64,000 nt of DNA from Escherichia coli (GCF_013315695.1 NZ_CP054353.1), one strand, 5' to 3'. Counted from the first letter of the stretch, positions 60,868 to 63,278 are shown. Program-made: numbers and translations. Notes: a model not told the origin generated them from the sequence alone.

Positions 60868-61527
60868 CTATACGTTTTGCCAGAAGGCCGATAGCCGCGG
60901 CCAGGTGAGTGATTCCGTTGAGGGCAACAATAATTGCGCCCCGGTTAAGCCTGCGCCGATCCCCACCGAGCGCATACCGCTGGCGTTAATGGCGTCAATG
61001 CCCGCCTGTGCATCTTCAATGCCGATACATGCCTGCGGCGGCACGCCCAGCCCGGCACAGGCGGCGAGAAAGATTTCCGGGTCCGGTTTCGAGTTTTTAA
61101 GTTGGGAAGCATCCGCGCAGAAGGTGAAAAACTCGCGCAGCTCCAGCGCCGCTAAAATCGTCGGCGCATTCAGGGAGACAGAAGCCAGCCCAACCGGGAT
61201 CTGCTGTGCACGGAGATCTGCCAGCAAATTGCGAATGCCGGGCAGCACAGCATTAACCGTCAGTTCGCGCAATGAATGGACGTAGAGCAGATTTTTGCGA
61301 TACGCCAGTTGCGCCCTCTCCTGCGGGTTAAAGTCGCCCTCTTTGCCCCCGTGTTGCAGAATGCGCCGCAGAGACTCATCGCGGCTGATCCCTTTTAGAG
61401 ATTCGTTAAACTGCGCATCAATGCTGATGCCAATTTCAGCGGCAATCTGCTGCCACGCCTGGAAATGCAGATGCGCGGTATCGGTGATTACTCAATCCAG
61501 ATCGAAAATTACCCCTTGCAGTTTCAT
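60868..61527 (-). pseudogene. ycjU: Beta-phosphoglucomutase gene inactivated by a nonsense codon at codon 12
   Basis: Reverse strand from ATG 61525-61527 reads MKLQGVIFDLD then TGA (61492-61494) where the HAD motif DxDGV needs Gly; the frame then continues [11 protein letters not shown]... to 60868. ORF track shows only the distal 134 aa from an internal TTG. Confidence 0.75.
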
Positions 61528-63278
61528 TCACCCTCCTGATGCGTGGTAGCGGTCCCATTGAAGGGCAAAATAAAATCCCCTAAACAGAAAACAGATTCTT
61601 CAGCGACTGAAATAAGCTGACCGTTCAAACGCAGTGAAACGGGAGCAGAAGTTCGAATCGCAATGCGCTGCGCGTCAAGAATGACCTGTAATTCACAGCC
61701 CTGCCAGAACAGAGGGAAAGACAACTGTTGCCACTGCTCAGGTAACGCCGGATTCAGATGTAATTCACCGTTGCGCACGCTCACCCCGGCAAAACCCTGA
61801 ATCGCCCCCAACCAGATTGCGCCAGTTGCGGCAGCATGGATACCGTCATCACAGCTATGCGGATCAGCACCAAGATCGATTTCAGTCCCCTCCCGCCAGA
61901 ACTGATAACTTTGCGCCAACAGGCCACAGCGTGCGGCAACAATGCCGTGGATCGCTTTACTCAGTGAAGAGTCGTGAATGGTGCGCGGTTCATAAAATTG
62001 CAGATTGGCGAGACAAGAGGCCGCTGAAAATTGTTTCGGTAGCATGTAATTGAGCATCACCACATCGGCCTGCTTGAGGATCTGCATCTCGTTCACTTCT
62101 GCGCGTGAATAATCCAGCAGAATGGTTTGTTTGCCTGCCGCCGCTTTGTATTTCGCCAGATTAATCGCTGGTTTCGCCATAAACGAATCATCCTGCGGCA
62201 AAACGCCGTCGGGCTGAATTTCTGGCATCCACAGCTCTTTGAGGAACATTTCGGCGCGATGGATAAACGCATCGTCGCTACAGCCAAATTGACGAGCGAT
62301 GTTCAGCGCCTGCTGGACGTTGTAATACGCCATATAGCTGGTGAAGGCGTTATTATTGACATGTTCGGTATATTCGTCTGGCCCAATAACATCATGAATT
62401 TCCAGACGGTCGTTAACCCTCACCGTGCGGCTAATCCAGAACTTTGCAGTTTCCAGAAGTAGCGCCATGCCTTCATGAGCAATGAAACTTTCATCCCCCG
62501 TGGTCTGCCAGTATTGAACAACCGCCCAGGCGATATCGGCGACCAGATGATGTTCCACCTGCGCCGAGGCCACTTTTTGCCGCAGCCCGGTGCGAATGTT
62601 AATGGCGGCAAATTCCGGCGTCTCTTCTTCGCCGCTGCGCGCGCTTTCCCACGGAAATAGCGCGCCCTGCCAGCCGTTGCGTCGCGCTTTCTCCTGCGCG
62701 CCTGGCAAGTTGTGCCAGCGATAACGCAGTAAACTTCTGGCAATCGTCGGTTCGCTAAACAGATGGAACGGCAGTAAAAATACTTCCGTATCCCAGAAAA
62801 CGTGGCCTTTGTAGCCTTCCCCGGTCAAACCTTTTGCCGCAATACTGCTGCGCTCGTCGTGAGCAGGCGTCATGATGCGTAGGTGATAAAGCGCATAATC
62901 TAACGCTTGCTGATCGTGCGCATCGCCACCGTTTACCGTGATACGACGTTTCTGCCACCATTGACGCCAGTTTTCTGTGGATGCTGCAAGAAGTTGGTCG
63001 TAACTCTGCTGTACACACATTTCAAGCTGACGAAGCGATGCACTACCCCACTCGATCCACAGCGAGTGCCAGAAGCCGGGATCGGAGAGAATACGCACAT
63101 AGTTGCTCACCCCAACAAACGTTGACTCGATGTTGGGATTAAGCGGCAGACGTAAAAAACTGATTTCGATATTCGACACCATCGGCCACGCCACCAGACC
63201 GCCCAGCAGTAATAAGCTGGGCGCGAGAAGCAACAGCGCAAAGGGCATATCGGAACGACCTGAAAAAAGCCTGTTCAT
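61524..63278 (-). pseudogene. In-frame fusion: ycjO N-terminus (about 74 codons) joined to the ycjT C-terminal about 510 codons
   Basis: 584-aa ORF starts MNRLFSGRSDMPFALLLLAPSLLLLGGLVAWPMV... (ABC-permease N-terminal TM) and switches near residue 75 (HSLW/IEWGSASLRQLE...) into a GH65 phosphorylase catalytic domain; junction about 63054-63059. Confidence 0.65.

Follow-up and report, generated by a model that had tools for sequence, protein, structure and literature searches.

An in-frame deletion fusing ycjO to ycjT, and the probable decay of the remaining ycj sugar operon, in a clone of Escherichia coli

We found that the ycj sugar operon is reduced to a remnant in the Escherichia coli DNA analysed here (a stretch of 64,000 nucleotides, hereafter the window), in which ycjO and ycjT have been joined in frame by a deletion. 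The product is a chimeric ORF of 584 aa, ycjO'::'ycjT (minus strand, 61524..63278, stop codon included). Each half is collinear with a complete gene of its own, and the nearest relatives still have the genes in between; the ORF is therefore most probably a deletion-derived chimeric pseudogene. The locus very probably represents an ordinary lineage-specific loss of the ycj sugar pathway by an ancestral in-frame deletion, followed by decay of what was left, and the 584-aa chimera would most likely be no more than a by-product, inert or unstable. The deletion is already flagged in public annotation. On the identical sequence of MSB1_4I (NZ_LR898874.1), RefSeq/PGAP lists two partial pseudogenes, JMX41_RS11615 and JMX41_RS11620, labeled "carbohydrate ABC transporter permease, missing C-terminus" and "kojibiose phosphorylase, missing N-terminus", without stating that the two form a single in-frame ORF. 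Literature searches on ycjT, kojibiose phosphorylase, the ycj deletion and MSB1_4I returned no description of it.

To define the junction, E. coli MS 21-1 (NZ_CP146670, locus L002) was used as the intact reference; it is the closest intact relative, has flanks 99.9% identical to those of the window, and carries the full ycjO-ycjT interval. Base-by-base comparison placed a blunt deletion junction at 63054..63055 (no strand). Upstream of it in the direction of transcription lies the ycjO-derived 5' part (minus strand, 63055..63278), which comprises codons 1-74, extends two bases into codon 75 and is 100% identical to MS 21-1 ycjO. Downstream lies the ycjT-derived 3' part (minus strand, 61524..63054), which opens with the final base of codon 246 and continues through codons 247-755 to the stop. 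The junction codon, ATC (Ile), takes AT from ycjO codon 75 (Met75) and C from ycjT codon 246 (Asp246). The fusion protein thus consists of YcjO 1-74, one new Ile, and YcjT 247-755, its first 74 and last 509 residues being identical to the MS 21-1 proteins; the peptide spanning the junction is ILSDPGFWHSLWIEWGSASLR, and CACTCGCTGTGGATCGAGTGGGGTAGTG is an example of a junction k-mer of the deletion allele.

Relative to both MS 21-1 and K-12, 5,175 bp are absent (3 x 1,725, i.e. 1,725 codons), corresponding to L002 3840-9014 and to K-12 NC_000913.3 1373446-1378620. Most of ycjO has gone with it, ycjP, ycjQ, ycjR and ycjS are missing entirely, and ycjT has lost its N-terminal third, which encodes its N-terminal domain. 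A reading made earlier from the sequence alone had described this 584-aa fusion with an in-frame junction at about 63054-63059, and the position determined here falls within that range. It was also correct on the genes lost between the two ends, which include ycjP, ycjQ, ycjR, ycjS and parts of ycjO and ycjT; its estimate of about 6 kb for the missing segment has to be reduced to 5,175 bp. The N-terminal 74 residues are not native to the phosphorylase: they are 100% YcjO, and native YcjT starts with its own beta-sandwich domain in 4,944 of 5,426 complete E. coli genomes. These results come from deterministic alignment and are not statistical. In a megablast search of the 5,426 complete genomes, window positions 60800-64000 were contiguous in only five, while elsewhere the match nearly always fell in two places with a break near 63068.

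No shared bases (0 bp of microhomology) and no inserted bases (0 bp) were found at the junction in the comparison with MS 21-1, and this blunt join points to illegitimate, homology-independent joining as the probable mechanism. A microhomology- or repeat-mediated deletion was considered, since the BLAST pieces overlap by 14 nt, and was rejected because this overlap is gapped and imperfect while the join at base level is blunt. The imperfect similarity near the junction is not significant, since 5.6% of position pairs drawn at random from the locus reach that score. An IS-mediated deletion was rejected as well: no IS sequence was found at the junction, and IS1 occurs only in unrelated lesions, namely in ompG of one carrier contig (L011) and at ompN in the window.

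Among the 5,426 complete E. coli genomes, four contain the exact 80-bp junction: MSB1_4I, from a rectal swab in Australia, and AF3, AF10 and AF14, from blood cultures in the UK. The exact 584-aa protein occurs on 544 public contigs (indexed in 940 blocks), one of them being ELF19584.1 from E. coli KTE69, which was deposited as "glycosyl hydrolase". Five further assemblies (L008-L012) all carry the exact junction as well, so that the identical blunt join was seen in ten independent assemblies, several of them closed and others draft, metagenome or Logan assemblies. The carriers all belong to one haplotype, with no more than 5 SNPs over 8 kb, and the deletion therefore has a single origin and was inherited by descent. 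Over 8 kb, a single base separates the window from MSB1_4I, and a single base at another site separates it from AF3. Along 64 kb the window is collinear with MSB1_4I, interrupted only by a 362-bp gap; its strain is thus a further member of the same clone. For this lineage, the blunt junction is a clone-specific marker usable for PCR or k-mer typing. The operon itself is widespread, with at least 80% of its 12.6 kb found in one place in 4,944 of 5,426 genomes (91%) and no match in 386. Only 7 of the 5,426 genomes match the MS 21-1 operon with 99% identity or more, most being near 95.3%, and this divergent ycj haplotype may stem from old recombination or represent a deep class of alleles.

Some features elsewhere in the window were recorded alongside. 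An IS1 copy lies at 16784-17551, and the adjoining 362 bp of MSB1_4I (2423076-2423437 of that record) are the ones missing in the window. Here, ompN has lost its 5' 328 bp and upstream region, with only a 259-aa internal ORF left at 17578-18357, apparently through a deletion next to the IS1 that is particular to the strain of the window. The region of about 21500-40800 (collinear with NZ_LR898874.1 2407248-2426500) is a degraded Rac-type prophage with an IS1 inside, and contains a frameshifted intR along with xisR, ralR, recT, recE, racC, kilR and sieB. It is followed by sitABCD, encoding an iron/manganese transporter, and a frameshifted dinI-like gene.

Directly after the fusion lies pgmB (ycjU; minus strand, 60868..61527), whose start overlaps the fusion stop (ATGA). 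It is a pseudogene: a G to T change at window position 61494 (G34T, GGA to TGA) places a TGA at 61492-61494 instead of Gly12, which bears out the nonsense codon reported in the sequence-only reading. The resulting peptide (Gly12*) ends directly after the DxD of motif I (D9-L-D11) and is not a full-length HAD protein. The next canonical in-frame start is codon 86. PGAP instead annotates pgmB as "intact" with 206 aa (WP_225385537.1) in both MSB1_4I (L001 8513-9133) and AF3 (L006 9607-10227), using an ATC at codon 14 as the start. The motif-I aspartates have an established role in HAD enzymes, and a product made from the ATC start would lack both of them. The non-canonical start in RefSeq thus masks a pseudogene. 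Two annotation faults are exposed by this locus, the GenBank record that presents the chimera as a glycosyl hydrolase and the RefSeq entry that rescues a dead pgmB.

The genes beyond pgmB, ycjV (ABC transporter ATPase; minus strand, 59772..60854; 360 aa) and ompG (monomeric porin; minus strand, 58822..59727; 301 aa), have full-length ORFs and are intact, in agreement with the sequence-only reading. They are followed by an intact ycjW (plus strand, 57773..58771; 332 aa), which is divergent from the ycj operon and encodes its LacI-family repressor (function from PMC6599011). At the other end, ycjN, encoding the substrate-binding lipoprotein, was identified from annotation and alignment; its 3' 702 nt are present (minus strand, 63299..64000) and the gene runs off the window end.

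According to Luhachack et al. 2019 (PMC6599011), ycjMNOPQRSTUV-ompG is repressed by YcjW, which gave one ChIP peak ahead of ycjM and another in the ycjT-ycjU interval. The same authors report that YcjW is released by kojibiose in vitro, and that K-12 failed to grow when kojibiose was its only source of carbon, even though it has the operon. In K-12, the identical CG-centred palindromic 14-mer TGGGACCGCTACCA occurs upstream of ycjM and before ycjU, and these two sites match the two ChIP peaks. The window carries an intact copy (minus strand, 61544..61557), a candidate YcjW operator O2 located inside the 3' end of the fusion ORF just upstream of pgmB. The upstream copy before ycjM, also a candidate operator by its sequence, is present in the carriers beyond the limits of the window. 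We ruled out that the pgmB stop (61492-61494) lies inside the candidate operator (61544-61557). In one contig (L010), a C to T change was seen within the candidate operator before pgmB.

The order of events follows from the distribution of further lesions among the carriers. A 61-bp query centred on the pgmB stop matched perfectly in only two of the four complete carriers, MSB1_4I and AF3. The other two, AF10 and AF14 (L004, L005), carry the deletion with an intact pgmB and with Glu364* in ycjM (GAA to TAA). In L010, pgmB and ycjM are intact and ycjN has Gln210* (CAG to TAG), while L011 has a 777-bp IS1 insertion (13442-14218) at nucleotide 900 of ompG, at the 3' end of the gene. As all carriers have the deletion and each branch has different later hits, the deletion is ancestral and preceded the pgmB stop. 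Three different remnant genes (pgmB, ycjM and ycjN) were accordingly hit by nonsense mutations independently on three branches. In a further contig (L008), a 19-bp insertion at about 15641 splits ycjX; this contig is metagenome-derived with 4.7x coverage (ERZ1741864), and the insertion may not be real but an error of assembly.

When all variable sites in the ten carriers were considered, the remnant genes (7,377 bp) contained 15 SNPs (3 nonsense, 8 nonsynonymous and 4 synonymous), and the flanking genes (10,821 bp) contained 5 (0 nonsense, 4 nonsynonymous and 1 synonymous). SNP density in the remnant is thus about four times that of the flanks (binomial P = 0.002), and nonsense mutations make up 3 of its 15 SNPs against a neutral expectation of 4% (P = 0.02), statistics that are only indicative because the carrier sample is small and non-random, covering places with differing neighbor genes and including five assemblies (L008-L012) chosen for an identical fusion protein. 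The SNP excess supports relaxed constraint and only hints at anything more. Within the fusion ORF itself, only 4 SNPs were seen (2 nonsynonymous and 2 synonymous), in a sample picked for an identical protein. The nonsense excess is greater than pure neutrality predicts. These numbers bear on a reading in which loss was adaptive, i.e. in which inactivation of the pathway and then silencing of the remnant were selected in an extraintestinal or gut clone, possibly through shedding of a costly or harmful activity or relief from the burden of a misdirected membrane chimera. Such a reading is unlikely in our view, although it retains some weight: the over-represented nonsense mutations in three genes on three branches would fit it, as would the independent deletion of the operon in strain MIN11, its absence from 386 genomes, and the blood-culture isolates among the carriers. 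However, the sample is tiny, the mix of synonymous, nonsynonymous and nonsense changes is otherwise near neutral, no phenotype is known, and the operon is kept in 91% of complete genomes.

We then considered what the fusion protein keeps and loses. It retains the native ycjO ATG, with AGGA (Shine-Dalgarno) 9 nt upstream. A Kyte-Doolittle scan showed a single hydrophobic segment at about aa 12-34 (minus strand, 63177..63245), which is TM1 of YcjO, and R3 and R8 lie on its N-terminal side. From this arrangement, the fusion would be a single-pass, N-in anchor sending the GH65 fragment to the periplasmic face. With one hydrophobic segment, against several peaks along full-length YcjO, it lacks the multi-helix membrane domain of an ABC permease of the MalF/UgpA type, with its segment that contacts the ATPase, and a Pfam search of the fusion gave no match to a permease domain or to the GH65 N-domain. 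The same search identified a complete Glyco_hydro_65m catalytic domain at aa 127-489 (minus strand, 61812..62900; PF03632, model positions 1-370 of 371, E = 1.6e-146) and a Glyco_hydro_65C domain at aa 501-557 (minus strand, 61608..61778; PF03633, E = 4e-13). What is kept of YcjT runs from the helical linker through the (alpha/alpha)6 catalytic domain to the C-terminal domain.

The N-terminal beta-sandwich is missing. In the GH65 kojibiose phosphorylase CsKP, the beta-sandwich spans residues 1-256 and the helical linker residues 257-294 (GH65 review PMC11442529). Alignment of full-length YcjT with 3WIQ places E247 of YcjT opposite CsKP E261, just inside the linker, so the cut takes essentially the whole N-domain. 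The catalytic acid E302 of the fusion, as well as K149, Y156, S437/S438 and H481, align to CsKP E483, K330, Y337, S631/S632 and H675, and all catalytic and phosphate-site residues listed for GH65 in PMC11442529 are conserved. The fusion therefore has the catalytic and C-terminal domains and the active-site residues of a GH65 phosphorylase, and lacks the beta-sandwich. No sigma-70-like promoter was found within 60700-64000 and an internal promoter was rejected, so expression would rest on the operon promoter upstream of ycjM, beyond the window.

With start codon, Shine-Dalgarno, frame and catalytic residues all kept, the fusion may have some residual or new activity. We give a slim chance to the idea that the chimera is under YcjW control and active while facing the periplasm, or that it is toxic and that the nonsense mutations were selected to silence the locus; if either were true, the locus would be under selection and not drifting. 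It is very unlikely that the chimera is a functional new gene, a membrane-anchored GH65 catalytic domain without its N-domain that selection maintains. What would speak for this is the preserved frame, the complete catalytic domain with all active-site residues, a break almost exactly at a domain boundary, and an identical protein on 544 contigs while neighbor genes carry stops. Yet one deletion in three is in frame by chance, the independent deletion in MIN11 being out of frame, and the number of contigs reflects clonal spread of a young allele together with a look-up by exact sequence. The few variants seen in the fusion include L44P and P221L. Moreover, the partner enzyme pgmB and the importer are dead, so that substrate supply and product use are gone, and the predicted topology would put the GH65 domain outside the cytoplasm. 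All seven of the solved GH65 structures matched also align over the N-terminal region, and the beta-sandwich is part of the common GH65 fold (PMC11442529). The probability that the junction is an assembly or sequencing artefact, or that the fused state is ancestral and 5 kb were inserted elsewhere, is negligible: nothing but the rarity of the allele favors it, while long-read closed genomes of Australian and UK origin, as well as independent assemblies of the draft, metagenome and Logan kinds, show the identical junction, and the halves are truncated versions of genes that are complete in 4,944 of 5,426 genomes and in the nearest relative with its 99.9% flank identity.

Lineage-specific loss followed by decay, our preferred reading, would have proceeded as follows. 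A single ancestral deletion of 5,175 bp, probably independent of homology, brought ycjO codon 75 into frame with ycjT codon 246. This destroyed both permeases of the ABC importer, YcjO being cut after TM1 and YcjP being gone, and it removed the guloside/glucoside enzymes YcjQ, YcjR and YcjS together with the N-terminal beta-sandwich of the kojibiose phosphorylase YcjT; with these components gone, the pathway is lost. As the frame was kept, translation would still run on to the native ycjT stop, at its overlap with the start of pgmB, and the deletion need therefore not be polar on pgmB, ycjV and ompG. The clone would then have spread while the useless remnant decayed neutrally, or perhaps was actively silenced, with the sub-lineage of the window gaining pgmB Gly12* and sister branches ycjM Glu364*, ycjN Gln210* or the IS1 insertion at the 3' end of ompG. 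The locus is in this sense a small and tidy example of operon decay after a founder deletion.

The closest known system is the ycjMNOPQRSTUV-ompG operon of K-12, for which PMC11543891 credits Mukherjee, Narindoshvili and Raushel with the enzyme assignments. The window has the locus, the gene order and the flanks (pspE upstream and ycjW downstream) in common with it, and also the 14-bp candidate YcjW operator before ycjU. Gene by gene, the haplotype of the window is 92.5-97.7% identical to K-12 (ycjT 92.5% nucleotide identity, ycjM and ycjN about 94%, ycjW 94.7%). The window differs from K-12 by the missing 5,175 bp, from ycjO codon 75 to ycjT codon 246, and by the stop in pgmB. Conversely, ycjV is an intact gene of 360 aa in the window whereas it is a pseudogene in K-12 MG1655 (ycjV/ymjB), and K-12 is therefore not a fully intact reference. 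At the protein level, the fusion shares the catalytic (alpha/alpha)6 and C-terminal domains, the catalytic acid and the phosphate-site residues with YcjT and CsKP (PDB 3WIQ/3WIR), but in place of the N-terminal beta-sandwich (CsKP 1-256) it has a foreign N-terminal transmembrane helix.

In clonal lineages of Shigella and E. coli, operons are known to be lost by deletion and their remains to decay as pseudogenes, a founder lesion being succeeded by independent inactivating hits. Compared with this general picture of reductive evolution, the ycj case has nothing distinctive, and its junction is free of IS elements and repeats. A second deletion at the locus, in E. coli O89m:H9 strain MIN11 (NZ_CP069666.1), arose independently on a K-12-like haplotype; it removes 3,175 bp from ycjQ to ycjT, also cutting the 5' end of ycjT (L003 5464-7477), has 5 bp of microhomology, is out of frame, and leaves ycjO and ycjP intact. 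One of the two deletions characterised is thus in frame, which is compatible with chance. Parts of the ycj operon have thus been lost repeatedly, as both the MIN11 deletion and the ycjV pseudogene of K-12 illustrate, and the present case is a further indication that E. coli can do without the ycj pathway in many niches.
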